This document shows, one piece after another, positions 1,717-45,024 of a stretch of DNA of 64,000 bases. Source of the stretch: an uncultured Actinomycetota bacterium (GTDB lineage Bacteria > Actinomycetota > UBA4738 > HRBIN12); NCBI GenBank assembly GCA_963839395.1, contig CAWIUW010000013.1, forward strand, positions 25,870 to 89,869, given 5' to 3'. The position numbers were made by a program, and so were the translations under genes. The notes beneath the pieces were generated by a model. The model worked only from the letters and a program-made list of their open reading frames with translations, had not been told where the DNA came from and did no database searches. Numbering within the stretch: the first letter of the stretch is position 1; the number at the start of each line of letters is the position of its first letter.

Positions 1717-1750
1717 TCGAGAGGGCGGGTCTTCATCCGGTCCCGGTCGA

Positions 1751-4051: not shown

Positions 4052-4055
4052 GGCG

Positions 4056-4436: not shown

Positions 4437-4500
4437 CGCCGCCTCCGCTCGAACCTCGTTCGTACATAAAATACAACCTGGATCCAGTCCGGGGAGGGAC

Positions 4501-13102: not shown

Positions 13103-13145
13103 CCGACCACCATACGGCCGGTGGCAACCGAGACGGCGCTAGTCT

Positions 13146-17354: not shown

Positions 17355-20300
17355 TCAGCCGCTCCCGAGGCGCTCGAGCCGAGCACGGATGCGGGCCGCG
17401 GCGGGGACGTTCCCCTTCCGTTCGTAGCGGGCGAGCGCCTCGTCGAACGCCGCGCGCGCGTCGTCGTGGCGGCCGGCCGCCTCGAGGACCATCCCGCGCA
17501 CCTCGTACCCGTCCCCCTGCCACACCAGATAGTCGGTTCGGTCGACGATCTCGACCGCCTCATCCGCGAGCGTCAGCGCCTCCTCGAACTCGCCCCGATC
17601 GGCCAGCACCCGGGCTTTCGCCATGCGCCACACCGCCTGCGACGCGAAGTCGTCCTCTGCCGTCAGCGTGCGACTCGTCGCCGCGCACTCCTCGGCCTCG
17701 TCGAACCGAGCGAGATCGCAGAGCGTGAGCGCGAGCAGCCCGGTGACCGTGGAGTTGAACCCGGTCTCACCGATCTCGTCGAAGGCCTCGTGTGATACCC
17801 GGAAGAGGCGTTCCGCCTCCTCGAGCCGTCCCGCGAGACGCTCGGTCTCCGCGATCATCTGGATCCCCGAGACGTGCCGCATCGGTGTCCCGAGCTCCAC
17901 GAACGTCTGCGCGGAGCGGTCGGCCGAGGCCCGGGCTTCGTCGAAGCGACCCGCCATCCCGAGCAGACCGGCCCGTGTCCGGAGGTTCAGGGCCTCGCCG
18001 CTCAGGCTGTCCCCGACGATGTCGTCGGCGCGCTCCATCACGACGAAGGCCTCGTCCAGCGGCAGCGAGCCGAAGTAGGCGGCCGTGTTGATCTCCGCCG
18101 CGATCTCCTGACGCTGCCGCCGTGTGAGGGAAGGCCTCTCCATCAGCCGCGTGGCGATCGCGGCCGACTCCGCGGTCCGCCCCTCGAAGAAGGAGAACCG
18201 AGCGAGGAGGATCAGCGCCCGATCACGATCCTCCTCGTGCCCGACGGCCTCCAACTCCTCGAGCGCCGCCTCGACGTCGGCCCGTGCCCGACCGAGCGTG
18301 TAGGTAGGGTCGAGCTGGCCGATCGCGGGGGCGCGAACCAGCTCCGCGCGGAGCGCGAGGCGTCGATCCCCGATCTCCGTCGCCAGGGCGGCCGCCCGCG
18401 TGGCGGTGTCGAGCGACTCCTGGAAGGACAGATCCTCGTCGAATATCTCCGCGAGCAGCACCATCGCTCGGACCAGTTCGGTGCCGTCCAGCAGCTCGAG
18501 GCTCCGCTCGAGGAACGCCCTCGCCGCCTTGAAGTCGTCTCGCTCGTCCGCCCGCAGCCCGCAGCGGTACAGGTGATCACCCGCTCGGCGGGCGAGCGCC
18601 CTCGTCCGCTCATCCGCGGTGCCGAGCTCGGTGCGATACCGGTACGCCCGTTCCAGGTGGTAACCGAGGATCTCCTCGTATTCGGCGATCCGGTCGGCGG
18701 CGGCGCGCGCGAGCCACTCGGCGAACCGCTCGTGCAGGTCGGCGCGCTGCTCCTTCGGCATCGCCTGGTAGGCGGCGTCACGGATCAGCAGGTGGCGGAA
18801 CCGGAATGCATCTTCCCCCGCGAACTCGGCGCGATCGGGCCGGATCAGCTCCTTCCGCGCCAGCGCGAGCAAGCGCGAGCGGACGTTCGGCCTCGCCGAG
18901 TCCTGGCTGAGCGTGGTGACCGCGCCGGTGTGGAACACCTTGCCCTCGACCGCGCCACGTTCGATCACCGCGCGCTCCTCCGCGTCCAGGCGATCGAGCC
19001 GTGCCGCGAGCAGGAGATGGATCGTGGGTGGGACGGTCACGTTCGCGAGGTCCTCGACGGACCGCCATGAGCCCTCCTCGAATCGGAGGAGCCCGTCGTC
19101 GATCAGCATCGCGAGCATCTCCTCGACGAACAAGGGGTTCCCTTCGGCGGCATCGAGTATCCGGTCGCGCGCCGCTCGCGGGATGTCGGCTTCCCCGAGG
19201 AGGTTGTCGACCAACATCGACGCCTCGTCGCCGGGAAGCGGCTCGAGGAGGATCGAGGTGGCGTTCATCTTGCCGCCACCCCATCCGGACCGGATCTCGA
19301 GGAGCTCGGGCCGAGCGACGCAGACGAGAAGGACGGCCGCATCCCGCGTCCAGTCGGCGAGATGCTCGACGAGATCCAGCATCGTCGGCTCCGCCCAGTG
19401 GATGTCGTCGAAGACCACCACGACCGGTCGTTCGCGGGCGAGATGCTCGAGTACCTTCCGGACTGCCCAGAAGGCGTCCTCCGTGGCACCCGGGGGGGCC
19501 CAACCGAACAGGCCGCCCACGAGCGACGCGATGCGGTCGCCGTCCGCGGACTCGGCGAGCAGCGCTTCCAGCTTCGATCGTGCTGCAGCCGGCGGCTCGC
19601 CCTCGATGATGCCCGCGGCCTGATGGATCACCTCGGCGAGCGGGAAGAAGGTGATCCCCTCTCCGTAGGAGAGGCACCGTCCGCGGAGGACGGTGGCCGT
19701 CCCGACAGACCCCTCGAGGAACTCACTGACGAGCCTCGACTTCCCGACCCCCGCCGAGCCCAGGAGCGTGAACAGGTGCGACGTGCGCTCGGTGACCGCG
19801 CGCTCGAGGGCGCGCTCCAGCATCGCGAGCTCCTTGCCGCGACCCACCATCGGCGAGTCGAGGTGACGCACGTGCCCGGCGACGTCGGCCAGGACAGCCA
19901 CGAGGCGGTGCGCGGGAACCGGCTGCTCCTTGCCCTTCAGGTCGAGTGCGGCGACCGGCTCCACCTCGACCGCATCCTTCACCAGCCGAAAGGTCGTCTC
20001 GCCGAGGAAGATCTCGCCGGGCGAGGCTGCCTGCTCCAGCCGGGCGGCGACGTTCACCGCGTCCCCCGTGACCAGACGTTGGCCGGCCGACGGGTCGCCG
20101 GCCACCACCTCGCCCGTGTTCACCCCGATCCGAGCGGCGATCCCGACGCCGTGCTCACGTTGGAGCTCGAGGTTGAGCCCCTCCAGCGCCTCCCGCATCC
20201 CCGCGGCGGCGCGAACGGCCCGAACCGCGTCGTCCTCGTGCAGTCGGGGGATCCCGAAGACCGCCATCACGGCATCGCCGATGAACTTCTCGACGGTCCC

Positions 20301-20540
20301 GCCGTGGCGCTCGATCACGGCCGCCATCTCGTCGAAGTAGCGGCCCATCACGCGGCGGAGCGCTTCCGGATCGAGGCGTTCGCCGAGGGACGTGGATCCC
20401 GTGACGTCGGCGAAGACGATCGTGACGACCCTCCGGACGTCGCCGGGGGATCCATCGGTCTCGGCGAGCGGGGTCGCGCAGTTCTGGCAGAAGCGAGCCT
20501 TGTCGGCGTTCTCTTCTCCGCAGGAGGGGCAGCGCTTCAC
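17355..20540 (-). CDS. Multidomain signalling protein with zinc ribbon, class III adenylate/guanylate cyclase, AAA/STAND-type ATPase and TPR (1061 aa). This is the intact paralog.
   Basis: CPSCGEENADKARFCQNC. Cyclase VTIVFADVTGSTSLGERL...KFIGDAVMAVFG. P-loop LLGSAGVGKSRL. Long C-terminal TPR/helical repeats. Confidence 0.85.
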   Translation of the reverse strand: MKRCPSCGEENADKARFCQNCATPLAETDGSPGDVRRVVTIVFADVTGSTSLGERLDPEALRRVMGRYFDEMAAVIERHGGTVEKFIGDAVMAVFGIPRLHEDDAVRAVRAAAGMREALEGLNLELQREHGVGIAARIGVNTGEVVAGDPSAGQRLVTGDAVNVAARLEQAASPGEIFLGETTFRLVKDAVEVEPVAALDLKGKEQPVPAHRLVAVLADVAGHVRHLDSPMVGRGKELAMLERALERAVTERTSHLFTLLGSAGVGKSRLVSEFLEGSVGTATVLRGRCLSYGEGITFFPLAEVIHQAAGIIEGEPPAAARSKLEALLAESADGDRIASLVGGLFGWAPPGATEDAFWAVRKVLEHLARERPVVVVFDDIHWAEPTMLDLVEHLADWTRDAAVLLVCVARPELLEIRSGWGGGKMNATSILLEPLPGDEASMLVDNLLGEADIPRAARDRILDAAEGNPLFVEEMLAMLIDDGLLRFEEGSWRSVEDLANVTVPPTIHLLLAARLDRLDAEERAVIERGAVEGKVFHTGAVTTLSQDSARPNVRSRLLALARKELIRPDRAEFAGEDAFRFRHLLIRDAAYQAMPKEQRADLHERFAEWLARAAADRIAEYEEILGYHLERAYRYRTELGTADERTRALARRAGDHLYRCGLRADERDDFKAARAFLERSLELLDGTELVRAMVLLAEIFDEDLSFQESLDTATRAAALATEIGDRRLALRAELVRAPAIGQLDPTYTLGRARADVEAALEELEAVGHEEDRDRALILLARFSFFEGRTAESAAIATRLMERPSLTRRQRQEIAAEINTAAYFGSLPLDEAFVVMERADDIVGDSLSGEALNLRTRAGLLGMAGRFDEARASADRSAQTFVELGTPMRHVSGIQMIAETERLAGRLEEAERLFRVSHEAFDEIGETGFNSTVTGLLALTLCDLARFDEAEECAATSRTLTAEDDFASQAVWRMAKARVLADRGEFEEALTLADEAVEIVDRTDYLVWQGDGYEVRGMVLEAAGRHDDARAAFDEALARYERKGNVPAAARIRARLERLGSG

Positions 20541-20580
20541 GAGCGAATCCTAGAGGGTGCTCAGGATGCGCCGGGGCCGG

Positions 20581-20786
20581 TCAGGTGCGGATGTACGCAC
20601 CACGGGAGCCGAGCTCGAAGAAGGTGGTCCCCGACGGCACGTGGGGTGCCACGTCGTCGCCGAGGGACCTCTCTTCCGACTCCGACGGTGTGCCGGTGTT
20701 CTCGATCTCGGCTCCGCCGTCGGGCTCGAGGAACTCCTGGAGCGACGATGGATCGAGCGGGCGGATCCGATCCTTCACGATCGACA
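20581..20786 (-). CDS. Hypothetical small acidic protein (68 aa). Low confidence.
   Basis: MSIVKDRIRPLDPSSLQEFLEPDGGAEIENTGTPSESEE... A GAGG SD lies 6 nt upstream. No homology recognised. Confidence 0.3.
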
Positions 20787-20805
20787 TCGGTGCCTCGCTT
20801 TCGTT

Positions 20806-20843
20806 GTGGGAGGAGGGAGTCCACCGAGGTGGACCCCCTCCCG
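20806..20843 (-). terminator. GC-rich stem-loop (about 14-bp arms) downstream of the ABM gene. It is a putative intrinsic terminator lacking a U tract.
   Basis: GGGAGGAGGGAGTCCACC-GA-GGTGGACCCCCTCCC is an imperfect inverted repeat. Confidence 0.4.
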
Positions 20844-20892
20844 ACACGACCGCGCTCGTGCAGCGGCACGACGCGGCCTGAAGAACCGATCT

Positions 20893-21198
20893 CTAGACCT
20901 TCGCGGGCGTGCCCTCGAAGAAGGCCATGTCCCCGATCTGGGTCGAACGGAGCTCGACACGGTTCGCGATGTGCTCGCGCACCCATCGCTCTGCCACCGG
21001 AGCGGCGGCGTCTGCTTCCTTGCGGGTCTCCCAGAAGCTCAACCCCACGACCTTCCTCTCACCGAGGTCGGCGACGCCGAACCGGATGAAGCCTGGCTGC
21101 TCCTGGAACGTGCGCAGCATCCCCTCACGGGCGATGTCGGCGAGCTCCTGGAAGTTGCCGTCCTTGATCTCGTACGTTGCGATGCGAACGTGCTGCAT
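20893..21198 (-). CDS. ABM (antibiotic biosynthesis monooxygenase/Dabb) domain protein
   Basis: 101 aa. MQHVRIATYEIKDGNFQE...GFIRFGVADLGERKVVGLSFWETRKEADAAA. AAGGAG SD 7 nt upstream. Confidence 0.7.
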   Translation of the reverse strand: MQHVRIATYEIKDGNFQELADIAREGMLRTFQEQPGFIRFGVADLGERKVVGLSFWETRKEADAAAPVAERWVREHIANRVELRSTQIGDMAFFEGTPAKV

Positions 21199-21465
21199 AT
21201 GTGAGTTGCTCCTTCGATGGTTCGGTCGATGTGCGGGATGTTTCGGACCCGCGACCGTCAGACCAGCGTGAGCCCGATCGAGAGCGAGAACGCTCGGGGT
21301 ATCGAGCCTTCGCGGGGACCAGCGATGGGACGGGATGGTCGGAAGCGACCTCCGTGACTCCTGCTTCTCCCCTCACATGGATGGGGATCGCGTCGCATCG
21401 AGTGTACGTCTTCCCTCCGACGGCACGACCGGCGTGGTTCCGAGCTTCTGATAGGAATCGCGCCG

Positions 21466-23694: not shown

Positions 23695-24025
23695 GGGCTT
23701 CGGTCCCCAACCCGAGCTCGTTCGGCCCTCCCTTCTTTCTCACGTTCGTCCTGTGTCCGGCTCCGCGCCGATAGCCGAAGGTCTCGACACCTCATCCCCC
23801 GTCGCGCCAGAACGTCCCCCGTGTGCCCGATGAAGTCATCGGCCGTCAGCCGACCAAGATTGCGACATTCGAGTGATAGCGCTGTCGCCCGCTGGGGGGC
23901 AAAGTGACCCTTCGTCCGGCCGACGCCGAGTGCCGGTCACCAGAGAGGACCAGGGATCGCCGTGATCGACGCCGGGAGCCAGGCCATCGAGGGGACCCAG
24001 ACAGCGCGGGAGGATCGCGATCGTC

Positions 24026-25636
24026 TTGGGTCTCGTCATGAGCGCCTTGCTCGCCCTCACGTTCCTCCCACCCTCACCGGTTCGGGCGGAGACGTTCGTC
24101 CCCGTCGTGGTACACGAGCGGAGGCCGACCACTGACTCCGCGGAAGCGTTGATCGAGGCTGTCGGCGGCAGCGTCACCAGGCCCCTCCCCTTGATCGGCG
24201 GGTTCGCCGCCGAAGTGCCGGACGATCGCCTGTCGCTGCTCGGCCCCGATGGTCCGATCGCGGGTCTGTACGTCGACGGTCCCATCCACATGGCTGCTGC
24301 GGGGACGACGGCGTATGACGACCTCGAGCCCAACCTCGCGTGGCGGAAGACGATCAGGCTCCCCCAGGTGCCGCTCGGCATCGACGGCAGCGGCGTGACG
24401 GTCGCGATGATCGACACCGGCGTCGCGCAGGTCGCGGACCTCGGTGATCGGGTCATCGCTCGGGTCGACTTCACACCCGGAGGCAACGGCGAGGACGCCT
24501 ATGGGCACGGGACGCACCTCGCGGGCGTGATCGCGGGAGACGGTACCGCCTCGGGTGGCAAGTGGCGGGGCGTCGCGCCGGGCGCGCAGCTCGTCTCCGT
24601 GAAGGTGGCAGGGCCCGATGGCGCGACCGACGTCTCCGTTGTGATCGCCGCGCTGCAATGGGTCGTCACCCACCGCGCGCAGTACGGGATCAAGGTGCTG
24701 AACCTCTCGTTCGGCACGGACAGCGTCCAACCGTACGCGGTCGACCCGTTGAACGCCGCGGTGGAGCGCGCGTGGGCGGCGGGCATCACCGTCGTGGTCT
24801 CGTCGGGGAACCGGGGACCGGGAACGATCAACAAGCCCGGCGACGACCCGTTCGTGATCACGGTGGGGGCGACCGACGGCAAGCAGACCGCCGACCGGAA
24901 GGACGACGAGGTCGCTCCCTTCTCGAGCAGCGGCATCACACAGGACGGCTTCGCGAAACCGGACCTCGTGGCACCAGGCACCACGATCGTGGCCACCCGT
25001 GACGCCGGAAGCACGATCGACGGGCTCCATCAGGACGCCGTCCTCGACGGCGACTACTTCAAGGGGACCGGCACATCCCAGGCGGGGGCGGTCGTCTCGG
25101 GCGTGGCCGCGCTCCTCTATCAGGCGAATCCGTCCCTCCGACCGAACACGGTCAAGAGCATCCTGTTGGGAAGCACCTTCCGAGCCTCGCAATACCGGAC
25201 GGGTGGCGGGGCGGGGCTCGTCGACGCGGCAGGCGCCGTGCAGAGCATCGGGAGCGGCGACTGGGCCAACGTCGGGTTGCTCCGGTCGCTCGGGGCGGGG
25301 TCACTCGAGGGCAGCCGAGGGCGGTTCCACGTGCACACCGATCTCAACCACGACGGCCAGCCCGATCTCGTCACGGGTGAGCAGGACGTCCTCGGCGCGC
25401 CGTGGGACTCGACCTCTTGGTCCTCGACCTCGTGGTCGTCGACGTCGTGGTCTTCCACGAGCTGGTCATCGCTGATCTCCGAGAACACGGGCTGGTCCAG
25501 CAACTCGTGGAGCTCGACGTCCTGGAGCGGCATGTTCTGGAGCTCGAACTCATGGAGCTCGAACTCATGGAGCTCGACGAGTTGGAGCTCGAACTCATGG
25601 AGCTCGACGAGCTGGAGCTCGGCGGCCTGGAGCTGA
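24026..25636 (+). CDS. Secreted subtilisin-like S8 serine protease with a C-terminal tandem (S/N)(T/S)SWSS hexapeptide-repeat tail (copy 1)
   Basis: Signal peptide MGLVMSALLALTFLPPSPVRA. Catalytic triad motifs VAMIDTGV (Asp), HGTHLAGVIAG (His), GTSQAGAVVSGVAAL (Ser). The last 77 aa are STSWSS repeats. Confidence 0.9.
   Translation: MGLVMSALLALTFLPPSPVRAETFVPVVVHERRPTTDSAEALIEAVGGSVTRPLPLIGGFAAEVPDDRLSLLGPDGPIAGLYVDGPIHMAAAGTTAYDDLEPNLAWRKTIRLPQVPLGIDGSGVTVAMIDTGVAQVADLGDRVIARVDFTPGGNGEDAYGHGTHLAGVIAGDGTASGGKWRGVAPGAQLVSVKVAGPDGATDVSVVIAALQWVVTHRAQYGIKVLNLSFGTDSVQPYAVDPLNAAVERAWAAGITVVVSSGNRGPGTINKPGDDPFVITVGATDGKQTADRKDDEVAPFSSSGITQDGFAKPDLVAPGTTIVATRDAGSTIDGLHQDAVLDGDYFKGTGTSQAGAVVSGVAALLYQANPSLRPNTVKSILLGSTFRASQYRTGGGAGLVDAAGAVQSIGSGDWANVGLLRSLGAGSLEGSRGRFHVHTDLNHDGQPDLVTGEQDVLGAPWDSTSWSSTSWSSTSWSSTSWSSLISENTGWSSNSWSSTSWSGMFWSSNSWSSNSWSSTSWSSNSWSSTSWSSAAWS
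25403..25633 (+). repeat. 18-bp tandem repeat array, about 12 units, encoding Trp-containing hexapeptides. It is interrupted by LISENTGW and SWSGMFWSS.
   Basis: tcgacctcgtggtcg-type units. The opposite strand reads ELELMELDE. Confidence 0.9.
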
Positions 25637-25647
25637 GGAGAGACGAC

Positions 25648-27846
25648 ATGAAGACACTTCCTCGATCGGTGAAGCTCCTGATCGCGGGAGCCACGCTCCT
25701 GGGCATCGGCTGCGTCGCGATCCGGGTCCCCGAGATCGCTCGCTGGGACGTGGAGGACGTCCTCGCCGTCATCGTCATCGCAGGACTCACGCTCGCCGCC
25801 GAGCGGTGCTCGATCCCACTTCGCCGCGGAACCGAAACCGTGAACTTCGCGCTCACGGACGGCGTGTGGGCCGGCGCGCTCCTTCTCGTCACACCGGGAG
25901 TGCTGACGGTGGCGGTGCTCGTGGGCGTGCTCGTCGGGCAGGCACTGAACCGCTGGAAGCCGTTCAAGATCGCCTACAACGTCTCGCAGTTCCTGATCGG
26001 CCTGACGCTCGCGGAGCTCACCCTCGCGTTCCTGAGCACGTGGGGCGCCGGTCCGACGGACCCTGCGCGCTGGGCCGCGGTCCTGATCGCGATGTTCGTC
26101 GCCTTCGCCGTCAACGCGAGCGCGATCATGCTCGTGGTGTCGATGGTCGAGGGCACTCGCTTCATCGACGTGTTCCGTCTCCCCCTCGCGTTGAACGTGA
26201 TGCACTGGCTCGGCAACGTGTTCCTCGGCATCCTCGGCGCATTGGTCTGGGCCGCCGAACCCGTTGCCCTGATCCTGATGATCGCGCCGGTCGCCCTCGC
26301 GTACGTCACCTACCGGCGTTGGGTGGAGGGCATCCGGGAACGCGATCAGATGCGCGACCTCTACGAGGCGGGAAGCACGCTCGTCGCCCCGCTGGCCGCG
26401 ACGCAGACCTTCGGCGACTTCCTCGGACTGCTCGAGAAGCTGCTCCCGGCCGATCGCGTGGAGCTCGTCGTCGTCGACGAGAACACCGTCGCGGTGCACA
26501 CCTCGACGGGGATCCGCCACCTCACGGTCGACGACGCGGGAGCGGATCCGCTCGACGCCTTCGTCGCGGTGCACAGCGGGATCGCTCCCCAGATCGCACT
26601 CGTCGGCGACGGGGAGGACGTCCGTGGGGTCCTCGCCGTGTACCGGAGTGAGGTCCTCACCGCGACGGAGCGTTCCCTCCTCGACGGGTTCGCGGCCCAG
26701 ATCGCAACCCGACTCCGGAACCACCGGATGTACGGGAAAACGCTCGAGCGCGCGCGGCTCTCCGAGATCGTCTCGCATACATCCGACGGCGTTTTCACGG
26801 TCGACCTCGAGGGACGGATCACGACGTGGAACCCGGCGATGCACACGCTGGTGGGCTACTCCGAGGACGACGCGATCGGCCGGCGGTGCGAGGAGCTCCT
26901 CGGCCTCGGGCTGCTCACGGTCCTCGCGGACGACGACGCAGGGAACGGCGCACTCGGCGGTACGACTGCCACGACGAAGGATGGGGCACTGAAGGAGCTT
27001 CGGCTCCGCACGAGCACGATCCGCGACGACGAGGGGGCGCCGCCCGCCCGGATCGTCGTGGTTCGCGACGTCGGCGAGGAGATGAAGGCGGAGCAGATCA
27101 AGCGCGACTTCGTGTCGATGGTCTCCCACGAGCTCCGCTCACCCCTGACGCCACTCCGCGGATTCCTCTCGAGCCTCGTCGAGGGCACCGTCGACGACGC
27201 TCCCGAGAAACGTCACGAGTACTACCGGATCATGCTGCGGCAGGCGCAGCGGTTGGAGCGAGTCGTGAACGACATGCTCGATGTCTCGCTGATCGAAGCC
27301 GGCGGGCTCGTGGTGGATCTCCAGCCGGTGTCGGTGGACCATGTGTTGAGCCGCGTGGTGAAGGAGTTCCGCGACCAGCACCCGGACCGCCCCGTCGTCC
27401 TCCGCGACCTCGATCGGACCGCGACCGTGTTCGCCGATCCCTTCCGCGTGGAGCAGGTGGTGCTGAACCTGCTGTCGAATGCCCACAAGTACACCCCCGC
27501 GGCGCTGCCCATCAGGGTGAGCACCATGACCTCGGAAGGGTCGGTCACCATCGCGGTGCGCGATCAAGGCGCAGGCATCGCGCCGGAGCATCGCGAGATG
27601 ATCTTCGACCGCTTCTACCGGGTGCAGGACGACCCGGCCTCGCGGCAACCTGGGACCGGCCTCGGCCTCTACATCGCGCGAACGCTCGTCGAGGCGATGT
27701 CCGGGCAGATCTGGGTGGACTCCGAGCTCGGCGCCGGCACGACCTTCTTGTTCAGCCTGCAGACCATCGACGTGGACCACCTCGCGGAGATCACGCTGGA
27801 CGAGCTCCCGCGGTCGGCCGAGGTGGCTCTCGTCCCCATGCCGTAG
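25648..27846 (+). CDS. Orphan sensor histidine kinase with a 7TM N-terminal domain, GAF-like, PAS, HisKA and HATPase_c (copy 1). It lies 12 bp downstream of the protease.
   Basis: ATG 25648 with GAGGAGAG SD. TM block MKTLPRSVKLLIAGATLLGIGCV...RCSIPLRRG... H-box VSHELRSPLTPLRGF. N/G1/G2 boxes LLSNAHKYT, GTGLGLYIARTLVEAMSGQIWVDSELGAGTTF. Confidence 0.85.
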   Translation: MKTLPRSVKLLIAGATLLGIGCVAIRVPEIARWDVEDVLAVIVIAGLTLAAERCSIPLRRGTETVNFALTDGVWAGALLLVTPGVLTVAVLVGVLVGQALNRWKPFKIAYNVSQFLIGLTLAELTLAFLSTWGAGPTDPARWAAVLIAMFVAFAVNASAIMLVVSMVEGTRFIDVFRLPLALNVMHWLGNVFLGILGALVWAAEPVALILMIAPVALAYVTYRRWVEGIRERDQMRDLYEAGSTLVAPLAATQTFGDFLGLLEKLLPADRVELVVVDENTVAVHTSTGIRHLTVDDAGADPLDAFVAVHSGIAPQIALVGDGEDVRGVLAVYRSEVLTATERSLLDGFAAQIATRLRNHRMYGKTLERARLSEIVSHTSDGVFTVDLEGRITTWNPAMHTLVGYSEDDAIGRRCEELLGLGLLTVLADDDAGNGALGGTTATTKDGALKELRLRTSTIRDDEGAPPARIVVVRDVGEEMKAEQIKRDFVSMVSHELRSPLTPLRGFLSSLVEGTVDDAPEKRHEYYRIMLRQAQRLERVVNDMLDVSLIEAGGLVVDLQPVSVDHVLSRVVKEFRDQHPDRPVVLRDLDRTATVFADPFRVEQVVLNLLSNAHKYTPAALPIRVSTMTSEGSVTIAVRDQGAGIAPEHREMIFDRFYRVQDDPASRQPGTGLGLYIARTLVEAMSGQIWVDSELGAGTTFLFSLQTIDVDHLAEITLDELPRSAEVALVPMP

Positions 27847-27849
27847 TCG

Positions 27850-28917
27850 CTAGGGAGCGGTCGGGACCGGAGCCGGGCGGAACGCAGCGAGGACGATCCG
27901 GAAGGTCGTTCCACGTCCCTCCTCACTCTCCACCGTGATGGAACCGCCGTGGGCCTCCACGATCGCCTTCGTGATCGACAGGCCGAGCCCGGTGCCGCCG
28001 TTGCTCCTCGCGCGATCGGTCTCGACGCGGGTGAAGCGGTCGAAGATCCGCGGGAGGTCCTCGGCGCGGATGCCTCGCCCCTGGTCCGTCACATCGATCA
28101 CGAGGCGCCCGTCGTCCGACCGACACTCGACACGGATCGTGTCCCCGTCGTCCGTCGCTTCGACCGCGTTCTCCAGTACCGCGTCGAGGGCGGTCTCCAG
28201 ACGCGCGCGATCGGCGCGGATCGTTCCGCGCGCCGTGATCTCCACCTTCCAATCGCGCGCGGCCGTCGGCTCCCACCGGCGCACCCATCCCTCGACGAAC
28301 GACTCCACCTGCACCGGACCCGTCGTCAGGAAGCCCGGATGTCCCGCCGTCGTCAGGACGAGCAGCCGTTCCGACAGGCTCGAAAGATGTCCGAGCTCGT
28401 CGAGGATCACCTCGGCGTCCTTCGAGACCTGTCCGTTGAGCCCCGAGTCGCGGATCAGCTCCGCGTGACCGCGCGCCACGGTGATCGGTGTCCGGAGCTC
28501 GTGCGATGCGTCGCGCACGAACTCGCGCTGCCCCATCAGGAGAAGGTGTTCCGATTCGGCCAGCCGCCCGGCCTCCTCGGTTGCGGTGCGCCGCCGTTCC
28601 GCGTGCCACACCATCGCGACGAACATCGCCGCCATCAGCGGGACCTCCGCGAGCTCATCGGGGCTCTCGTGGCCGCGCGCGATCGACCATGTGAGGGCGG
28701 CGCCGGTGACGGCCATCACGACGACCAACAGGACCATCGTCGTGCGGAGGCGCCACAGCCGGATCCCGTAGACGAGCGTGAGACTGACCCAGATGAAATG
28801 GAACGGGATCGTCTCCCAGTGGCTCAGCAACGCGATGACCACCAGGTTGGCCGCGGCGAACACGCCCCACGCGAGCTCGACCCAGCGCCTACGGAGCGTT
28901 GAACCGATATCCGACAT
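27850..28917 (-). CDS. Sensor histidine kinase (2 TM, HAMP-less, HisKA + HATPase_c), partner of the adjacent OmpR-type regulator
   Basis: ASHELRTPITVARGHAELI (H-box). GTGLGLSITKAIVEAHGGSITVESEEGRGTTF. Overlaps the regulator gene by 29 nt. Confidence 0.85.
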   Translation of the reverse strand: MSDIGSTLRRRWVELAWGVFAAANLVVIALLSHWETIPFHFIWVSLTLVYGIRLWRLRTTMVLLVVVMAVTGAALTWSIARGHESPDELAEVPLMAAMFVAMVWHAERRRTATEEAGRLAESEHLLLMGQREFVRDASHELRTPITVARGHAELIRDSGLNGQVSKDAEVILDELGHLSSLSERLLVLTTAGHPGFLTTGPVQVESFVEGWVRRWEPTAARDWKVEITARGTIRADRARLETALDAVLENAVEATDDGDTIRVECRSDDGRLVIDVTDQGRGIRAEDLPRIFDRFTRVETDRARSNGGTGLGLSITKAIVEAHGGSITVESEEGRGTTFRIVLAAFRPAPVPTAP

Positions 28918-29554
28918 TCCGCACCGTCTCGATCACGTCGCCGCCGAGCTTGGCTCGGAGGCGTCCCACGCAGACATCCACCACGTTGCTTCCCGGATCG
29001 AAGGAGTAGCCCCAGACGTCGGCGAGCAGTCGCTGGCGACTACGCACCTCCCCCTCCTGTCGCATCAGATGCTCGAGCAGGAGGAACTCCCGTTCGCTCA
29101 GGGTCACGTGTCGCCCGTTCACCTCGGCGATGCGCCGGGTGAGATCGAGGGTCAGGCCGCCTCCCCGGAGCAACTGATGACGGGGTCCGGTGCCGGGCTG
29201 CCGCACGCGCGCCCGCACGCGGGCGAGGAGCTCGGCGAGCGAGAAGGGCTTGGAGAGGTAGTCGGAGGCGCCGAACTCCAGGCACCGGACCTTCGTCTCG
29301 ACGTCGGAGAGCGCCGACAGCACCAATACGCGCTGTTCGGGTCTGCTCTCCATCAGGCCCTGGAGGACGGACATCCCGTCGAGGCGAGGCAGGAGCAGGT
29401 CGAGCACCACCAGCTCGTAGCTGCCCGTGCTCGCGAGCTCGAGTGCGCGGATCCCGTCCTGGGCACCGTCGACCTGGAACCCCTCCGCCGCGAGCGCTCG
29501 GGACACGAAGCTGACGATCCTCGGCTCGTCGTCGACCACCAGCACCCTGGTCAC
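28889..29554 (-). CDS. OmpR/PhoB-family response regulator (REC + winged-helix)
   Basis: VLVVDDEPRIVSF...YELVVLDLLLPRLDG...LVLSALSD...VGYRF. Confidence 0.9.
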   Translation of the reverse strand: MTRVLVVDDEPRIVSFVSRALAAEGFQVDGAQDGIRALELASTGSYELVVLDLLLPRLDGMSVLQGLMESRPEQRVLVLSALSDVETKVRCLEFGASDYLSKPFSLAELLARVRARVRQPGTGPRHQLLRGGGLTLDLTRRIAEVNGRHVTLSEREFLLLEHLMRQEGEVRSRQRLLADVWGYSFDPGSNVVDVCVGRLRAKLGGDVIETVRNVGYRFNAP

Positions 29555-29569
29555 GGAGCGGATGCTAGG

Positions 29570-29668
29570 CCTGACATGGCCGGCGCGATAGTCCTATGAC
29601 GGAACCGTCATCAGACGCGTTCGGCCACGTGACCGTGAGGTGACGGTTCCCTGACGACCCTGACATGG
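29570..29668. promoter_or_regulatory. Divergent promoter region with repeated motifs, candidate response-regulator operators
   Basis: Direct repeat CCTGACATGG at 29570-79 and 29659-68. Palindrome TGACGGAACCGTCA at 29597-29610. TGACGGTTCC at 29641-50. Confidence 0.4.
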
Positions 29669-29753
29669 ACCACCTGTGGTGGGTCCCACGCCATACAGTC
29701 GCTCGCGAGCCGGCCACCTGGTCGTGGCCCGCCGACCGAGAGGGGGAACCACC

Positions 29754-30173
29754 ATGGGTTCACGCCTGCAACGGCTGCTCGTCGTCCCCGCGGCCATCGC
29801 GATCGCGCTCGCCGTCGGGGGCTGCGGAGGAGGGAGCGGGATCGGGGTCACACTCGCCGACTTCTCGATCACGCCGGATGAGACGAGCGCCTCAGCGGGC
29901 GAGCTGACCTTCGACGTGACGAACGATGCCGAACAGACGCACGAGTTCGTGATCTTCAAGACCGACCTCGCGGCCGATGCGTTGCCCACGGACGACGAAG
30001 GCCTCGTGGACGAGTCGGGCGAGGGTGTCGAGCTCGTCGATGAGATCGAGGACATCGAGGCAGGCTCCACGCAGTCGCTCACCGTGACCCTGGACGCTGC
30101 CGATTACGTCTTCATCTGCAACCTGCCCGGCCACTACGCGCAAGGGATGCACACGAGCTTCACCGTGAGCTGA
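29754..30173 (+). CDS. Cupredoxin (type-1 blue copper, plastocyanin/azurin-like) lipoprotein
   Basis: Lipobox LAVGGC after the signal peptide. Cu ligands in ...CNLPGHYAQGMH (Cys, His, Met) plus an upstream His. GAGGGGGAA SD. Confidence 0.75.
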   Translation: MGSRLQRLLVVPAAIAIALAVGGCGGGSGIGVTLADFSITPDETSASAGELTFDVTNDAEQTHEFVIFKTDLAADALPTDDEGLVDESGEGVELVDEIEDIEAGSTQSLTVTLDAADYVFICNLPGHYAQGMHTSFTVS

Positions 30174-30213
30174 GCTCGACCAGCCCCGCTCTAAGCGCAG
30201 ACGGAGGACGAGG

Positions 30214-33200
30214 CTAGGACGAGAGCTCGGCGTCCCGGGCGGCCAGCATGTGGCGCGTGCGCAGGAGTTCCTCGACACCTTCGATCGGGAGCGGCCTGGA
30301 GAAGTAGTACCCCTGACCCAGCTCGCAATGGAGCTCCAGCAGCTTGTCGAGCTGATCGGCGCGCTCGATGCCCTCCGCCACCGGACGGAGGTTGAGGATC
30401 GCCGCGAGCTCGATGATGGCGGCCGTGAGCGCCGATTCCTCTCCCCCTTCGCTCACGCCGTCCACGAAGGACTTGTCCACCTTCAAGATGTCGACCGGGA
30501 AGCGGCGGATGTAGTTGAGGGATGAATAGCCGGTCCCGAAGTCGTCGACCGCGAGCATCACGCCGAGCTGCTTGAGCTGCGTGAGGCGCTCGTTGGACAG
30601 CGCCATGTCCTGCATCATCACGCTCTCGGTGATCTCGAGCACGAGACACTCCGGCGGCAGCCCCGTCTCGAGGAGGACCTTCGCGATCTCGCGAACGATC
30701 TCGGGACGCTGCAGCTGTCGGGCGGACAGGTTCACCGCCATGTGGAGTGGGGCCGCGTCCGGGACGGATCGCTGCAAGATGTCACCCTTGCGGCACGCCT
30801 CCCGGAGCACCCAGGCACCGATCTGGACGACGAGGCCCGTCTCCTCCGCGAGCGGGATGAAGTCGAGCGGCATGACCAGGCCACGGGTCGGATGATTCCA
30901 TCGAACGAGCGCTTCGAACCCCTCGATGTCACCCGACTCCAGTCGGATCACCGGCTGGTAGTGCAGGACGAACTCTTCGTTCTCCACCGCCCGCTGGAGG
31001 TCCGCCTTGAGCTCGAGCCGGCGAAGCGCGGTGTCGTGCATCTCGGGCTCGAAGATCTGGAATCGGTTCTTCCCCGCCTCTTTCGCGATGTACATGGCGA
31101 CGTCGGCGTTCCGGAGCAGCTCCTCCGCGCCCTCGGGCCCGGTCGTCCGGCCGACGCCGGAGGTCGCGATCCCGATGCTCGCGCGAACGAAGACCTCCTT
31201 CCCGTCCAGGAGGAACGGCCCGTCGAGCGCCTGCAGGATCCGGCCGGCGACCGCGGCGGCGCCCACGCTCTCGCCTCCGTCCTCGATCAGGATCGCGAAC
31301 TCGTCCCCTCCGAGACGGGCCGCGGTGTCGGGCGTCCGCAGGCAGGTCCGCAACCGCTCGCCCACCTCGCCGAGCAGGCGGTCGCCGGCCGCGTGGCCGA
31401 GCGAGTCGTTGATCGTCTTGAAGTCGTCGAGGTCCATGAACAGCACAGACACGGGGTCGGTCTCACGGGTGAGCCGCTCCAGGGCGTGCTCCACGCGGTC
31501 CCGGAACAGCGCGCGGTTGGCGAGCCCGGTGATCGAGTCGTGGAAGGCCTGGTGTGAGAGCTGCTCCTCGAAGGCCTTGCGCTCGGAGACGTCCCGGGAG
31601 TTGAGGACGATCCCCTTCACGTTGGGGTCGTGCATCAGGTCCGTGCGGAGCGTCTCGATGTGCAACCAGAAGTCGTCTCGGTGTCGCATCCGCGACTCGA
31701 TCAGCCCGGTGGACGTCCCCGCTTCCCGTCCGCTGAGGGTCAGGAACTGCAGGACCTGCGTCTTGTCGTCGGGATGGATCAGCCGCGTGAGCTTCGTGTT
31801 CTCGAGCTCCGACGGGTCGTAGCCGAACACACCCTCGACGGAGGGACTCACGTAGCGGACGGTCGAATCCGCATCGACGACCATGACGACGTCGGTCGAG
31901 TTCTGGACGAGGGAGCGGAACCGGGCCTCGGTCTGCTGGCGGAGCAGGTCCTCGGTCAGGGCGGCGCTGTCGAGCGCGAGGGCCACCTGGGAGGTGAGCG
32001 CCTCGAGGGTGTCCCGGTTGGCCCTCGGGAGCGCGGTGGGGCCTCCCACGACGAGGAGTCCTCGCAGCTCGTCCTTCATGAACAGCGGACCGCTCAACAG
32101 GAACGCGGACTCCTCCGGGAACCCGAGGGGTCCCGCGATCTCGGACTCCTCCACCACCACCTCGTAGGAGCGGTGGGTCTTCAGGCGGTCCCGCTTCCAT
32201 TGCGGCAGGATCGAGAGCGCGATCGTATCGCCCACGACGTTTTCCCGGCCGCCGGCGGCGGCCACCACGGCATAGTTCTCTGCTTCATCGCCCACCAGGA
32301 TCCGGATCACGGCGCTCTCGCCCGCGATCGACCGGGCCGCCTGCAGGGTCGCTGCGTAGATCCCCTCGCGGTTCGTCGCCGTCACGAGCGCCGTGCCGGC
32401 GCCGCGGAGCGCCCGTTCGCGGACGGCCGACTGCTCCTGCTTGCGGACCAGACCCGCGATCCGCACGACGACCAGGAGGAACAGCGCGGCCGACGCCCCG
32501 ATCAGAACCGGCAGGTCGCCCGCGACGTTCCGCAGGTGCTGGATCATCATCACGCTGGGCGCGAGGAGCGAGGCGAGCGCGAGCAGCCAGAGTCGGCCCC
32601 TCGACAGCCGTGGCTCGTTGTCCGGGGTCCGCTCGGACAGCGCCCGCATCGAGCCGTGGAGCGCGGCCGCCCCCCACAGGATGTAGAAGGTGGCCCACCC
32701 CGCCTCGAGGTATCCGGACTGGTCGTACACGATGCCCTGGACCGACAGATAGCTGTAGGCGAAGTCCGTGACGAACAGCGCGAGGGTCGCCCCCGCCATC
32801 AGGTAGAAGGCCGGGGCTCGCCGGCCCCCGCCGATCGCGAGGCGGACGACGACCGTCAGCAGGATCAGGTCCATGACCGGGTAGCCCATCGCCGTCAGCT
32901 TCTGGAGCAAGGTCACCTGCGGGTCGTGGGCGAGCGGCGACAACAGGAAGACCCACGAGATCGTGCCGACGCCGATCGCGACGATCAGCGAGTCGATCAC
33001 ACTTTCCCGGTCTCCTCCCGGCGTGCGGAGGCGGATCAACCAGAGGATGCCGGCGATCAGGCAGGGGTAGACCGAGAGGTAGAAGACGTCGCCGGCCGAC
33101 GGGAACGGGAGCTCGGTCCCGAAGAACCGGTCGTAGTTGTACGTGATGACGTCACCCGCGACGAAGAACGCCTGGCCGAGGGCGAACAGGTACCACGGCA

Positions 33201-33366
33201 GCCGCGTCTGTGGCTTCCACATCCGGACGGCGATCACGATCACGATCGGCGAGGAGATCGCGATGACGTTGAACAGCGGCCCGAGGCGAAGACCCGGCAC
33301 GAACAGGAACGCGGCCGTCACGACGACGCCGCCACAGATATAGAGCAACCACGCTCTCTGTCTCAC
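30214..33366 (-). CDS. Membrane-bound GGDEF-EAL protein: polytopic N-terminal sensor domain, GAF-like, PAS, GGDEF diguanylate cyclase, EAL phosphodiesterase
   Basis: GGDEF (RLGGDEFAIL) and EAL (EALVRW...) motifs. About 8 TM helices. Probable GTG start at 33364-33366 (MRQRAWLLYICGG). The 1483-aa ORF-track extension upstream is spurious. Confidence 0.85.
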   Translation of the reverse strand: MRQRAWLLYICGGVVVTAAFLFVPGLRLGPLFNVIAISSPIVIVIAVRMWKPQTRLPWYLFALGQAFFVAGDVITYNYDRFFGTELPFPSAGDVFYLSVYPCLIAGILWLIRLRTPGGDRESVIDSLIVAIGVGTISWVFLLSPLAHDPQVTLLQKLTAMGYPVMDLILLTVVVRLAIGGGRRAPAFYLMAGATLALFVTDFAYSYLSVQGIVYDQSGYLEAGWATFYILWGAAALHGSMRALSERTPDNEPRLSRGRLWLLALASLLAPSVMMIQHLRNVAGDLPVLIGASAALFLLVVVRIAGLVRKQEQSAVRERALRGAGTALVTATNREGIYAATLQAARSIAGESAVIRILVGDEAENYAVVAAAGGRENVVGDTIALSILPQWKRDRLKTHRSYEVVVEESEIAGPLGFPEESAFLLSGPLFMKDELRGLLVVGGPTALPRANRDTLEALTSQVALALDSAALTEDLLRQQTEARFRSLVQNSTDVVMVVDADSTVRYVSPSVEGVFGYDPSELENTKLTRLIHPDDKTQVLQFLTLSGREAGTSTGLIESRMRHRDDFWLHIETLRTDLMHDPNVKGIVLNSRDVSERKAFEEQLSHQAFHDSITGLANRALFRDRVEHALERLTRETDPVSVLFMDLDDFKTINDSLGHAAGDRLLGEVGERLRTCLRTPDTAARLGGDEFAILIEDGGESVGAAAVAGRILQALDGPFLLDGKEVFVRASIGIATSGVGRTTGPEGAEELLRNADVAMYIAKEAGKNRFQIFEPEMHDTALRRLELKADLQRAVENEEFVLHYQPVIRLESGDIEGFEALVRWNHPTRGLVMPLDFIPLAEETGLVVQIGAWVLREACRKGDILQRSVPDAAPLHMAVNLSARQLQRPEIVREIAKVLLETGLPPECLVLEITESVMMQDMALSNERLTQLKQLGVMLAVDDFGTGYSSLNYIRRFPVDILKVDKSFVDGVSEGGEESALTAAIIELAAILNLRPVAEGIERADQLDKLLELHCELGQGYYFSRPLPIEGVEELLRTRHMLAARDAELSS

Positions 33367-33449
33367 AGGTTCGATATCGGTTCGGGGAGAAGCCGACCTT
33401 AGGAGGCGTCGTCCCTGCTCAGGCCCCTTAGATGGAGCTGTGAGGGAGC

Positions 33450-34787
33450 TCACAGGGGAGCCGGGGCGCGGCTGGGGACCGATGGCCCTTCGACCGGGGG
33501 CAGGATCCCTTCGGGGTCCTCCCGCGAGGCGTCGGCGAGGGCACCCGTTCGCTCGATGTCCCGCATGCCGGGGAGGAACAGGAACGAAAGCGTCACGATG
33601 GCACCCAGGATCCCCGCGCCCACCAGCGTGTTCCGGGGTCCGAAGATCCCGGCGACGGGGCCCGTCAGCGCGAAGGACAGCGGCACGAGACCCGTCGAGA
33701 TGAACCAGTCGAAGCTGGACACCCGGCCGAGGAGCCTCGCGGGCACCAGCCGACCCTTCGTGGTCGCCCAGACGATGGTGCCGGCGCCTTCCAGGGCGTT
33801 GAAGACGAAGCTCGCCACCATCAGCTGCCAGGGGAACGACGCGAGCCCGTAGCCGGCGATGGCGACCGTCGACAGGGTCCAGACCACGTACATGAACGTG
33901 ATGTGCTTGCGAGGCATCTCCCGGTTCCCCATGACGACCGCGGCGAACATCGCCCCGACGCCTCCGAGGGCGAGGATGAACCCGAGGTCCCGGGCCGATC
34001 CGTGCATGTGGTTCTTCACGATGAACGGAAGCAGGACTTCGGACGGTCCCCAGAAGATCAGATACGCGAGGGTCGCTGCCAGGAACGTGCCCCAGAGCCA
34101 CACCCTCGATCTCACGAACCGGAACCCTTCGCGGATGTCTTTGAACGCGCCCCTCCGCTCCTCGTGAGGACGTTCGATCTCGTGCGACCGCATCAGGGCG
34201 ACGCACACGATCGAGAGGACGAACGTGAACGCGTCGATCAGGAACGCCGGTCCCGGATGACCGCTCCACATGGCGATGAGCCACCCGCCGATCGCGGGGC
34301 CGATCATGCGGGCCGCGGCCGGGCGGATGAACTGGTCCAGTGAGTTGGCCTGGTTCAGGTCGGCACCCGGGACGAGCTGCGGGACGATCGCGTCGAAGGC
34401 CGGCCCGAAGAACGCGGTGCCGGCGCCGAAGGTCGCCGCGACGATCAGGATGTGCCAGAGCTCGAGGTTCCCGGTGATGGACAAGGCTCCGAGGATCCCG
34501 ACGCTCACCGCGCGCAGCGCGTCGGCAGCGATCATCACGCGCCGCCGGTCGAACCGGTCGCTGACGACGCCACCCACCAACAGGAAGACGATCTGCGGCA
34601 CGGTCATCGCGACGCCCACGATCGAGAGCGCCGTGGGCGCGTTCGACAGCTCGTAGACCTGCCACGCCAGGGTCACGAGGAAGATGCCGTCGCCGATCAA
34701 CGACGCGGTCATCCCGGTCCAGAGCAATCGGAAGTCGCGGTGTCGGAGGGGGCGGAGGATCCGGACGCGCTCGACCAGACCCCTCAT
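33450..34787 (-). CDS. MFS transporter (EntS/efflux-like, 12 TM)
   Basis: MRGLVERVRILRPLRHRDFRLLWTGMTASLIGDG... is a typical MFS_1 N-terminus. ATG 34785-34787 lies 2 nt after the TPR gene stop. Confidence 0.8.
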   Translation of the reverse strand: MRGLVERVRILRPLRHRDFRLLWTGMTASLIGDGIFLVTLAWQVYELSNAPTALSIVGVAMTVPQIVFLLVGGVVSDRFDRRRVMIAADALRAVSVGILGALSITGNLELWHILIVAATFGAGTAFFGPAFDAIVPQLVPGADLNQANSLDQFIRPAAARMIGPAIGGWLIAMWSGHPGPAFLIDAFTFVLSIVCVALMRSHEIERPHEERRGAFKDIREGFRFVRSRVWLWGTFLAATLAYLIFWGPSEVLLPFIVKNHMHGSARDLGFILALGGVGAMFAAVVMGNREMPRKHITFMYVVWTLSTVAIAGYGLASFPWQLMVASFVFNALEGAGTIVWATTKGRLVPARLLGRVSSFDWFISTGLVPLSFALTGPVAGIFGPRNTLVGAGILGAIVTLSFLFLPGMRDIERTGALADASREDPEGILPPVEGPSVPSRAPAPL

Positions 34788-34789
34788 GG

Positions 34790-36894: not shown

Positions 36895-37055
36895 GAGACC
36901 CGTATCGGCCGAATGGGTGAGGGGCTTAACACCTACAAGGGGGTATCTCCCGCGCCGGACCGAGCACGGACGCAGCACGGACGCGCCCCTCTTCGTGAGG
37001 GGCAACGCAGAACCCCCGCACGTGTGGCCCATATGGGGGACACCGGGCTCGCGAT

Positions 37056-39200: not shown

Positions 39201-39306
39201 GGGTGGATGTTCGCACGGTCGTCGGTCCGCACCCAAGGGCGCCGACCTGCGGATCTGCTGGGAGGCAGGCCCCTCGCTCGGCCCAGGTGCCACCACCACG
39301 CGTCGA

Positions 39307-40596: not shown

Positions 40597-40603
40597 CGGT
40601 CCC

Positions 40604-42184: not shown

Positions 42185-42249
42185 GGGCGGAGTCTAGGGT
42201 CGCCTCGGTCCCGGGTCGAGCCAAGGGGAGTTCGGCCGGCCGCGCAGGT

Positions 42250-43023: not shown

Positions 43024-43160
43024 AGAGGGATGCTCGGCACGTCGAGCGATTTCCTGAGCTGGCGCTCATCGATGTTGCTCGCACCAGGCGTCTGTCTCCC
43101 GGAAGTCGAGTAGCTATTCGATGACCCCGCGGTCCCCCGGGTTCGCCCACGGTCCCCCCA

Positions 43161-45011: not shown

Positions 45012-45024
45012 ATGGGTAGATGAC

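Follow-up and report, generated by a model that had tools for sequence, protein, structure and literature searches.

A conserved gene pair of Trp-tailed subtilases and polytopic membrane sensors in Actinomycetota

We analyzed a 64,000-nt stretch of DNA (here termed the window) from an uncultured member of the Actinomycetota, which has a G+C content of ~69% and whose closest database relatives are metagenome-assembled genomes (MAGs) of uncultured Actinomycetota. The window carries two cassettes in which the gene for a subtilisin-like (S8) protease with a tryptophan-studded C-terminal tail directly precedes, on the same strand, the gene for a polytopic membrane sensor with a histidine kinase core. 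Inspection of the open reading frames (ORFs) placed both cassettes where the original prediction, made from the sequence alone, had put them. In copy 1, the protease ORF (24026-25636, +; true start uncertain) is separated by an 11-nt spacer, GGAGAGACGAC (25637-25647, +), with a GGAGAG resembling a Shine-Dalgarno sequence, from the kinase gene (25648-27846, +), which starts with the ATG at 25648; the mechanical ORF opens at 25402. In copy 2, the protease ORF spans 43161-45011 (+) and its uncertain start is probably internal, similarity to copy 1 beginning at 43494 and the S8 domain occupying 43722-44531. The corresponding sensor kinase gene (45025-47226, +) begins 13 nt after the protease stop codon and encodes a membrane domain (45025-45699) and PAS (46132-46446), HisKA (46477-46680), and HATPase (46813-47142) domains.

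The pairing of the two genes was surveyed from both sides. On the kinase side, an alignment of the sensor N terminus alone was used, so that generic kinases were excluded, against a set containing one genome per bacterial and archaeal species. This confirmed 38 loci, all from uncultured Actinomycetota, two of which start inside the kinase gene. At all of the 36 loci with any upstream sequence, an S8 protease or its tail is encoded directly upstream on the same strand, and this holds down to a sensor identity of 37%. Homologous kinases in other genomes, where an absence of S8 proteases would have spoken against the original prediction, therefore retained the association at every informative locus. 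The gap between stop and start codon is 0 to 15 nt at most loci, and many gaps measure 1 to 4 nt or are overlaps. The flanking genes vary from locus to locus, two long contigs having quite different neighbors around the pair, and no other gene family within 6 kb is common to more than ~10 loci.

A response regulator is not part of the conserved unit. No receiver domain was found within 6 kb at 36 of the 38 genome loci, and a regulator lies nearby only in the two closest relatives, which are syntenic with the window. The sole receiver domain in the window belongs to an OmpR-type response regulator (28889-29554, -), encoded convergently ~1 kb past kinase 1 and adjoining a kinase gene of its own (27850-28917); as a neighbor of kinase 1, it is kept only in those two relatives (L003 and L008). 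The earlier statement that neither kinase has an adjacent response regulator is accordingly right for the unit itself but overlooks this regulator with its own kinase. We considered a classical two-component operon and rejected it, given that the conserved unit has no cognate regulator and that the single regulator of the window is paired with another kinase.

Starting from the protease, metagenome contigs were searched with an alignment of the pre-tail motif and the tail only, which returned 80 loci. Sixty-three of these were informative, in that a real protease is followed by 390 nt or more of sequence, and a profile search detected the sensor N-terminal module directly downstream on the same strand at 61 of the 63. 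The two tail-bearing proteases without a sensor are those of L093, with threonyl-tRNA synthetase downstream, and L102, where convergent genes for oligopeptide ABC transporter ATPases of the OppD/OppF type (848-3167, -) adjoin the protease. Likewise, all six of the Ilumatobacter-type proteases on long contigs that were looked up (6/6) are followed by a same-strand gene for a GGDEF-EAL protein, and the proteins encoded by these six genes score 1e-31 to 1e-45 with the sensor profile. One 4.1-Mb Ilumatobacter genome contains two unlinked paralogous pairs. On these counts from the kinase side, the tail side, and Ilumatobacter, the view that the cassette is a module rather than a chance adjacency is strongly supported, and we consider it very probable that protease and sensor form a dedicated functional module.

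What is conserved at these loci is not the kinase. In the proteins encoded downstream at more distant loci, the membrane and GAF domains are retained and the C-terminal part is GGDEF-EAL, GGDEF alone, or nothing recognizable, so that, across all loci, the output varies between PAS plus kinase core, GGDEF-EAL, GGDEF alone, and none, while the module of eight transmembrane (TM) segments and GAF domain remains constant together with the protease. The conserved unit is thus the protease plus the sensor input module. Since the input module is constant and the output exchangeable, the protease belongs with the input side of the sensor, and this is our strongest argument for placing it there. In a subgroup with "ANSWS" tails (L106, L108, L111, and L119), the partner has ~470 amino acids (aa), comprising the membrane domain and a GAF-like region without recognizable output, and its start codon overlaps or abuts the protease stop codon. 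L085 is the only locus with an inserted gene: an ORF resembling a GNAT acetyltransferase (3658-4569) lies between protease and sensor, and the gap is 895 nt.

The tail of the protease runs from a "PWD" motif to the stop codon with a Trp at each fifth residue, the register being held by one conserved SLISENxG decad. That of copy 1 (25400-25633, +) has 15 Trp residues at a strict period of five and ends ...AAWS-stop; that of copy 2 (44745-45008, +) has 17 at the same period and ends ...VAWS-stop. It is preceded by an extension of the form LEGSRGxxHV..DxxxDG..GExDVLG (25295-25399, +, in copy 1), which is modeled as packed on the catalytic domain (predicted local distance difference test [pLDDT] score, 86 to 93), gives a weak FG-GAP-like match, and has invariant E, S, R, G, H, V, D, G, G, E, D, and G positions in 17 diverse tails. 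Among orthologs, tail lengths differ by multiples of five residues, and nearly all tail-bearing proteins end one residue past the last Trp. When the family is compared more widely, nothing but the Trp and the period stays the same; the number of Trp residues varies from 5 to 37, and the pentads include STSWS, ANSWS, GASWT, GVRWT, GMSWD, GAHWG, GNAWM, and ARAWA. Within the window tails, identical pentads differ synonymously at 44 to 47% of codon positions (44% in copy 1), including switches between TCN and AGY serine codons, so the repeat has been kept at the protein level and does not stem from recent slippage.

When 1.84 billion representative proteins were searched by phmmer with only the tail as the query, 229 were retrieved at an E value of ≤1e-3. 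Among the best 150 of these 229, 70 contain an S8 domain, with the repeat at the extreme C terminus in 60 of the 70, and the rest are mostly short fragments; a search seeded with an Ilumatobacter protease added more than 100 further tail-bearing subtilases. Pfam scans of these proteins revealed no family over the tail. The period-5 Trp motif is not exclusive to subtilases: it also occurs in unrelated, apparently eukaryotic proteins (P0243 and P0264), namely, an adhesion-GPCR-like protein with (VWNGQ)n before the GPS motif and an animal heme peroxidase.

AlphaFold2 assigned neither a fold nor regular strands to the tail (pLDDT, <50 for residues 466 to 536), in a model that is otherwise confident. 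On the Wimley-White interfacial scale, partitioning into the membrane interface is predicted to be favorable for 96% of 261 tails, with a median of -1.0 kcal/mol per pentad. A pentapeptide-repeat beta-helix (PF00805/PF13576, Rfr-fold) was also considered for the tail. Pentapeptide repeat proteins share the period of five, and the unit A-S-W-T-G fits their consensus [STAV][DN][LF][STR][G] except for the central Trp; a few distant members of the tail family have faint precomputed Pentapeptide matches, and the only PDB sequence match of the tail is a pentapeptide repeat protein, at a nonsignificant E value of 0.82. The absence of Pfam Pentapeptide matches in the window and the failure of AlphaFold2 to find a fold (in itself weak negative evidence) argue against a beta-helix, and some pentads would place an Arg at the inward-facing position; we therefore rejected it. 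W_rich_C (PF07483) is another Trp-rich C-terminal region found on some subtilisin-like proteases (PMC2605481), which has been described for Synechocystis proteins and not as a period-5 repeat. PF07483 matched in none of the Pfam scans of tail-bearing proteases.

The 15-bp repeat that encodes the tail is also open in another frame (ELELMELDELEL...), at 25381-25647 and 44881-45024, and gene callers consequently extend the kinase by 17 to 70 residues into the protease gene. Database entries for the kinase (P0001, P0013, and others) are accordingly 749 to 803 aa long, against a true length of 732 aa, and at 25 loci clustering yields a false "family" that consists of a shadow ORF antisense to the repeat. 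In Ilumatobacter nonamiensis (L127; GCA_000350145.1, BAOL01000214.1), the contig ends inside the Trp-pentad repeat. As short-read assemblies break at the repeat, the pairing is probably hidden in many draft genomes, and this fragmentation, together with the misled gene callers, is probably why the module has been overlooked.

Both proteases match Peptidase_S8 (PF00082) far above the cutoff of 21.8 bits (156.3 bits and E value of 1e-45 for copy 1; 166.4 bits and 1e-48 for copy 2). The catalytic domain of copy 1 (24386-25198, +; residues 121 to 391; Pfam E value, 1.3e-45; pLDDT, >90) follows a propeptide (24095-24274, +) with an I9-like beta-alpha-beta fold, modeled at residues 24 to 83 as E-H-E-E-H-E (pLDDT, 75 to 95). 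Both copies contain the motifs DTG (D130), HGTH (H161), and GTS (S351) and the oxyanion residue N262, which do not vary among 125 aligned homologs; with triad and oxyanion Asn intact, the protease is to all appearances catalytically competent. The AlphaFold2 model, built on a 125-sequence alignment (mean pLDDT, 80.9), has high confidence up to about residue 465, a stretch that covers propeptide, catalytic domain, and the ~50-residue extension. An earlier model from 33 close homologs (≥70% identity), with a mean pLDDT of 40 including the catalytic domain, was discarded. Foldseek aligned the model with subtilisins at TM-scores of 0.85 to 0.89 (normalized to the target). The nearest solved structure, for propeptide and catalytic domain alike, is the pro-form of Tk-SP from Thermococcus kodakaraensis (3AFG and 9UES; E value, 3e-30; 31 to 39% identity), with 3AFG the best PDB match of the propeptide, followed by savinase and BPN'. 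Where the window protease has its Trp repeat, Tk-SP has a beta-jelly-roll domain, and it is not known to have a sensor partner.

The N terminus of copy 1 is complicated by a break in the reading frame. The export signal region (23962-24088, +) probably contains a 1-nt frame problem: a GTG at 23962 opens the peptide "VIDAGSQAIEG...", which matches the N terminus of an ortholog (P0122; "MIDTGSQAIEL...RTTVVLGLVLSALLAL"), but this GTG is out of frame with the main ORF ("LGLVMSALLALTFLPPSPVRA/ETF"), in which translation could begin at the TTG at 24026 at the earliest. The break is either an assembly error of 1 nt or a genuine frameshift, and in the latter case the signal peptide would be a poor one. 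The hydrophobic h-region followed by VRA-E would fit a signal peptide, and homologs begin with a charged and then a hydrophobic segment, as is typical for export signals; from these features, the protease is likely to be exported.

Two other classes of S8 enzymes were examined as possible relatives and set aside. The mycosin model (TIGR03921) is the top NCBIfam model for both proteases, at 126 bits against a cutoff of 278.75. Mycosins, too, are actinobacterial, membrane-associated S8 enzymes, but the window proteases have the Trp-pentad tail in place of a C-terminal TM anchor, and no EccB/C/D/E or Esx families were found in the 30 window ORFs scanned or at loci L001, L002, and L121 to L126. 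The anti-phage protein IetS (IteS) matches at the level of the S8 domain only (62 to 70 bits with the 749-aa PADLOC models; 48 to 55 bits against a 900-bit NCBIfam cutoff), and no IetA-type partner ATPase adjoins the window proteases.

The first 225 residues of the sensor consist of eight hydrophobic segments, as counted by hydropathy, rather than the seven of the original prediction, and are connected by loops of a few residues. In copy 1, this MASE9-like membrane domain (25648-26322, +), with very short outer loops, is followed by a GAF-like domain (26353-26733, +), a PAS domain (26755-27072, +; Pfam E value, 2.5e-11), and a HisKA plus HATPase_c kinase core (27100-27762, +; 1.2e-17 and 1.9e-28). 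Pfam recognizes PAS, HisKA, and HATPase_c in both window kinases. The predicted GAF domain falls below the Pfam threshold in the window (GAF_3 E values, 1.5e-4 to 6.6e-4) but is clear in aligned homologs of the GGDEF type (down to 3e-12). Judging from the positively charged N terminus and a basic stretch past the last segment, the GAF, PAS, and kinase domains lie in the cytoplasm.

MASE9 (PF20972) was introduced as a domain of eight TM segments that probably includes a hairpin within the membrane and that is combined with several output domains (10.1101/2021.11.05.467447). The sensor has the same layout of eight TM segments with minimal loops, N-terminal to promiscuous outputs. Seven of 12 aligned relatives match PF20972, the best at 9.5e-8; the N-terminal module of copy 1 has no match at an E value of ≤1, and neither full-length kinase has one at ≤0.01. 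The L111 partner reaches 18.6 bits against a cutoff of 24.3, and a precomputed match at L002 is marked "weak." By its layout and these profile matches, the membrane domain is best classified as a distant MASE9 relative. The architectures described for MASE9 are HD-GYP and GGDEF-EAL proteins, with no mention of histidine kinases or of a partner protease (10.1101/2021.11.05.467447), whereas the window proteins are kinases.

Five residues of the membrane domain, W33, E52, R102, K107, and N111 (kinase 1 numbering), are each conserved in 88 to 100% of 26 aligned kinase- and GGDEF-type partners, with only K107 and N111 strictly invariant. Without exception, the 32 orthologs examined retain the H, N, G1, and G2 boxes (SHELR His, N-box, DxGxG, and GxGLGL) of the kinase core. 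By eye, the two window kinases hardly differ in their DHp helices, and they are therefore expected to share a response regulator. By the box motifs, the kinase core is intact and looks active. Its top NCBIfam matches are of the PhoR/WalK/PnpS type, all under their cutoffs.

The two cassettes of the window arose by duplication. DNA similarity between 24158-27784 and 43494-47161 amounts to 75.2% over 3,674 columns and is unbroken over both genes and the junction; no third copy is present in the window. Paralog identity is 73% for both proteins (390/533 for the protease and 520/714 for the kinase), lower than the ~80% of the original prediction. Neighbor-joining trees of proteases and kinases have the same topology, with copy 1 grouping with L003 to L008, L016, and L018, copy 2 with L009, L011, L013, L015, and L017, and L019 to L021 branching before the split. 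Given this congruence, the pair was duplicated as a unit before these species diverged, and at least one other MAG holds both types (L004 plus L010). The copies have diverged by a dS of 0.7 to 1.0, with dN/dS ratios of 0.19 (protease) and 0.28 (kinase), indicating that both genes of both copies are under purifying selection. The unbroken similarity, the congruent trees, and the purifying selection support the prediction that the pair was duplicated together and that both genes were kept. In related genomes with a single pair, the flanks mix genes that flank window copy 1 with those that flank copy 2, which suggests recombination, deletion, or rearrangement between direct-repeat copies; at L005, L006, and L008, for instance, a pair of the copy-1 type has as its neighbors the BenE, cyclase, and NERD genes found beside copy 2 in the window (39383-42229 and 20746-21432). 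The second pair at L010 (MAG MFD00072.bin.1.11, contig 2) has a clipped tail (...SWSPPRGRH) and a kinase frame break; either this copy is decaying or the long-read assembly is in error.

The interval of 15.3 kb between the cassettes (27850-43161) was predicted to be packed with signaling genes, and its 11 genes bear this out: they include the kinase and regulator pair mentioned above, a GGDEF-EAL protein, a HisKA_3 kinase, and an adenylate cyclase. The ORF for the GGDEF-EAL protein (30214-34665, -; 1,483 codons) ends in GAF-PAS-GGDEF-EAL, has no Pfam match over its first ~760 residues, and overlaps by ~1.2 kb, in another frame, with an MFS transporter ORF (33450-35123, -), so that its true start is probably internal, or else it contains a frame error. 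No further MASE9-like module was found in the window, including in this gene. The density of signaling genes is unusually high throughout, with several adenylate/guanylate cyclase genes (17355-20549, -; 40604-42184, -; and 56642-57961, -, with 51778-53697, -) and a cyclic nucleotide-binding protein (62300-62920). Two of the cyclases combine an N-terminal zinc ribbon with AAA_16 and TPR domains and show partial DNA similarity to each other. A GH25 muramidase gene (11159-13138, -), with InlB B-repeat-like and CE2_N-like regions, may encode a cell wall hydrolase. An Rfam scan of the whole window matched no family.

How might the two proteins work together? We favor, at a probability of roughly 55%, a model in which the sensor takes its input from the protease, an extracytoplasmic partner that docks through its tail. 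The exported subtilase and, 11 to 13 nt further on, the polytopic sensor would be encoded in a two-gene operon, the tight gaps implying cotranscription. The flexible, Trp-studded tail would hold the protease at the outer membrane interface, at or on the sensor membrane domain, which itself exposes almost no loops. Sensor activity would then depend on whether the protease or its tail is docked, occupied, or cleaved, leading to phosphorylation of an unlinked response regulator in this organism and to altered cyclic di-GMP (c-di-GMP) levels in other lineages. The mechanism suggested originally, in which proteolysis would produce or remove a signal for the sensor, may be one variant among several. 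Outer loops of only a few residues leave little room for a conventional sensing domain, consistent with a partner protein on the input side. In Escherichia coli, the MASE1 domain of DgcE is reported to take its input from the partners RdcA and RdcB (PMC6510439). This resembles our model in that a MASE-type domain is fed by a dedicated partner protein and not by a small ligand; it differs in the MASE family, in the cytoplasmic GTPase nature of the partner, in phylum, and in lacking a Trp repeat.

Several observations weigh against this model. The export signal of copy 1 is disturbed by the frame break at its 5' end, and the sensorless loci L093 and L102 demonstrate that the tail can exist without the sensor. 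Scans for promoter and terminator consensus sequences gave nothing above shuffled expectation; such scans are uninformative in this high-GC organism, so cotranscription is read from the spacing. Tails range in net charge from -37 to +15, and a few pentads (e.g., SETDW) are unfavorable for membrane partitioning, so that a purely physicochemical membrane anchor would leave some members unexplained. Moreover, no obvious complementarity was seen by eye between the charge of the tail and that of the outer loops of the sensor. Both the contact of the tail with membrane or sensor and the direction of signal flow between protease and sensor are points that we infer.

Possibly, the tail does not dock the protease but is itself the signal. 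We consider it unlikely that the Trp-pentad tail is a ligand of the sensor, either tethered, with docking altered by proteolysis as in a protease-activated receptor, or chopped into Trp pentapeptide autoinducers. Spelled out as a self-made peptide signal, the tail would be a polyprotein of Trp pentapeptides, cut by the protease or another enzyme, that serve the sensor as autoinducers or tethered ligands, a proposal that we rate marginally lower still. Exact 5-residue units with the end of the tail at a unit boundary, up to 36 identical pentads in many family members, predicted disorder and hence accessibility, and a protease triad that is always intact are all in line with it. Pentads also shift rapidly among lineages (GMSWD, GAHWG, GVRWT, GNAWM, and ANSWS), as pherotypes do, and a sensor with little exposed surface may bind ligands within the membrane. 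Ligand binding within the membrane was indeed proposed by those who defined MASE9, who did not report a stimulus (10.1101/2021.11.05.467447).

Elements of such a system are familiar from elsewhere. Phr pentapeptides are released by subtilisin, Epr, and Vpr in Bacillus, tandem alpha-factor repeats are cut by the S8 protease Kex2 in yeast, and AgrC and ComD are polytopic peptide-sensing kinases. The parallels lie in the S8 protease, the five-residue or tandem peptide units, and the polytopic kinase with little extracellular domain; in the window, however, the putative precursor would be fused to the protease itself and there is no sequence relationship to Agr, Com, or Phr components, nor did the scans made reveal similarity to AgrB, AgrD, or ComX components. 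It speaks against a peptide signal that the window clade keeps a position-specific SLISENxG decad, an SWSG(M/T)x unit, and invariant Ser and Gly residues across species, which points to a positional, docked, or structural role of the tail rather than to interchangeable units. In addition, a Trp as the only residue conserved family-wide is a poor base for ligand specificity, and the units are not separated by spacers or recognition sites.

Alternatively, the tail may only anchor the protease on the envelope, be it membrane or wall, and the sensor may detect released peptides or amino acids without touching the protease, coupling foraging to gene expression or c-di-GMP. The resemblance of the protease to subtilisins of broad specificity (Tk-SP, savinase, and BPN'), the favorable interfacial partitioning of the tail, and the oligopeptide transporter genes at the sensorless locus L102 would suit this explanation. 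We nevertheless find it doubtful: hydrophilic peptides are unlikely to be received by a domain that is buried in the membrane and whose loops are a few residues long, and product sensing explains neither why one tail-bearing S8 subfamily is the partner at almost every locus nor why the spacing resembles that of translationally coupled genes.

A further explanation reverses the relationship, with the kinase sensing envelope or secretion stress and the protease acting on the output side as a coexpressed quality control effector. Linkage of protease genes to two-component systems is a known theme, as in MprAB-PepD of Mycobacterium and CssRS-HtrA/HtrB of Bacillus, and the PhoR/WalK/PnpS models nearest to the kinase core, although below their cutoffs, could be taken to point the same way. 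In those systems, too, a protease gene is coupled to a sensor kinase, and the envelope is Gram-positive or actinobacterial. However, their loci include the regulator, and their proteases are HtrA-type S1C enzymes that are regulated targets, whereas the window unit has no regulator, an upstream S8 subtilase, and interchangeable outputs. The order of the genes (protease first, sensor second) and the nature of the enzyme, an S8 protease with a propeptide instead of an S1C chaperone-protease, also fit poorly with stress control. The partner output swaps among kinase, GGDEF-EAL, GGDEF alone, and nothing, and with outputs so interchangeable it makes no sense for the protease to be the transcriptional target of one specific kinase pathway; this explanation is improbable. 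Least credible is the absence of any functional link, with adjacency reflecting inherited synteny or misassembly of a repeat-rich region: the repeat does break short-read assemblies (as at L127) and mislead gene callers, and counts are inflated by shared ancestry as most loci come from related uncultured Actinomycetota, but the pair stays while its flanking genes change, survives divergence to 23 to 37% sensor identity and the exchange of outputs, and was duplicated at least twice (in the window and as the two unlinked Ilumatobacter pairs), so that this explanation fits the data poorly overall.

In conclusion, each component of this module (S8 protease, MASE-type sensor, and orphan kinase) belongs to a known kind. 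Their dedicated pairing and the Trp tail with its period of five seem not to have been described; literature searches returned no description of either. The module provides a strictly coinherited, probably extracellular partner for one family of MASE-type domains. One and the same input pair feeds histidine kinase signaling in one lineage and c-di-GMP turnover in others, a natural case of modular rewiring of sensory input, and the period-5 Trp tail is a selected sequence element on many actinobacterial subtilases. The occurrence of the module in Ilumatobacter, a cultured genus, makes experiments feasible. Should the tail prove to be the ligand, a stimulus would be defined for the first time for a membrane sensor domain of the MASE type, and Actinomycetota would have a new class of peptide signaling, in which enzyme and pro-signal share one polypeptide and the receptor gene lies directly downstream, feeding a phosphorelay or c-di-GMP.

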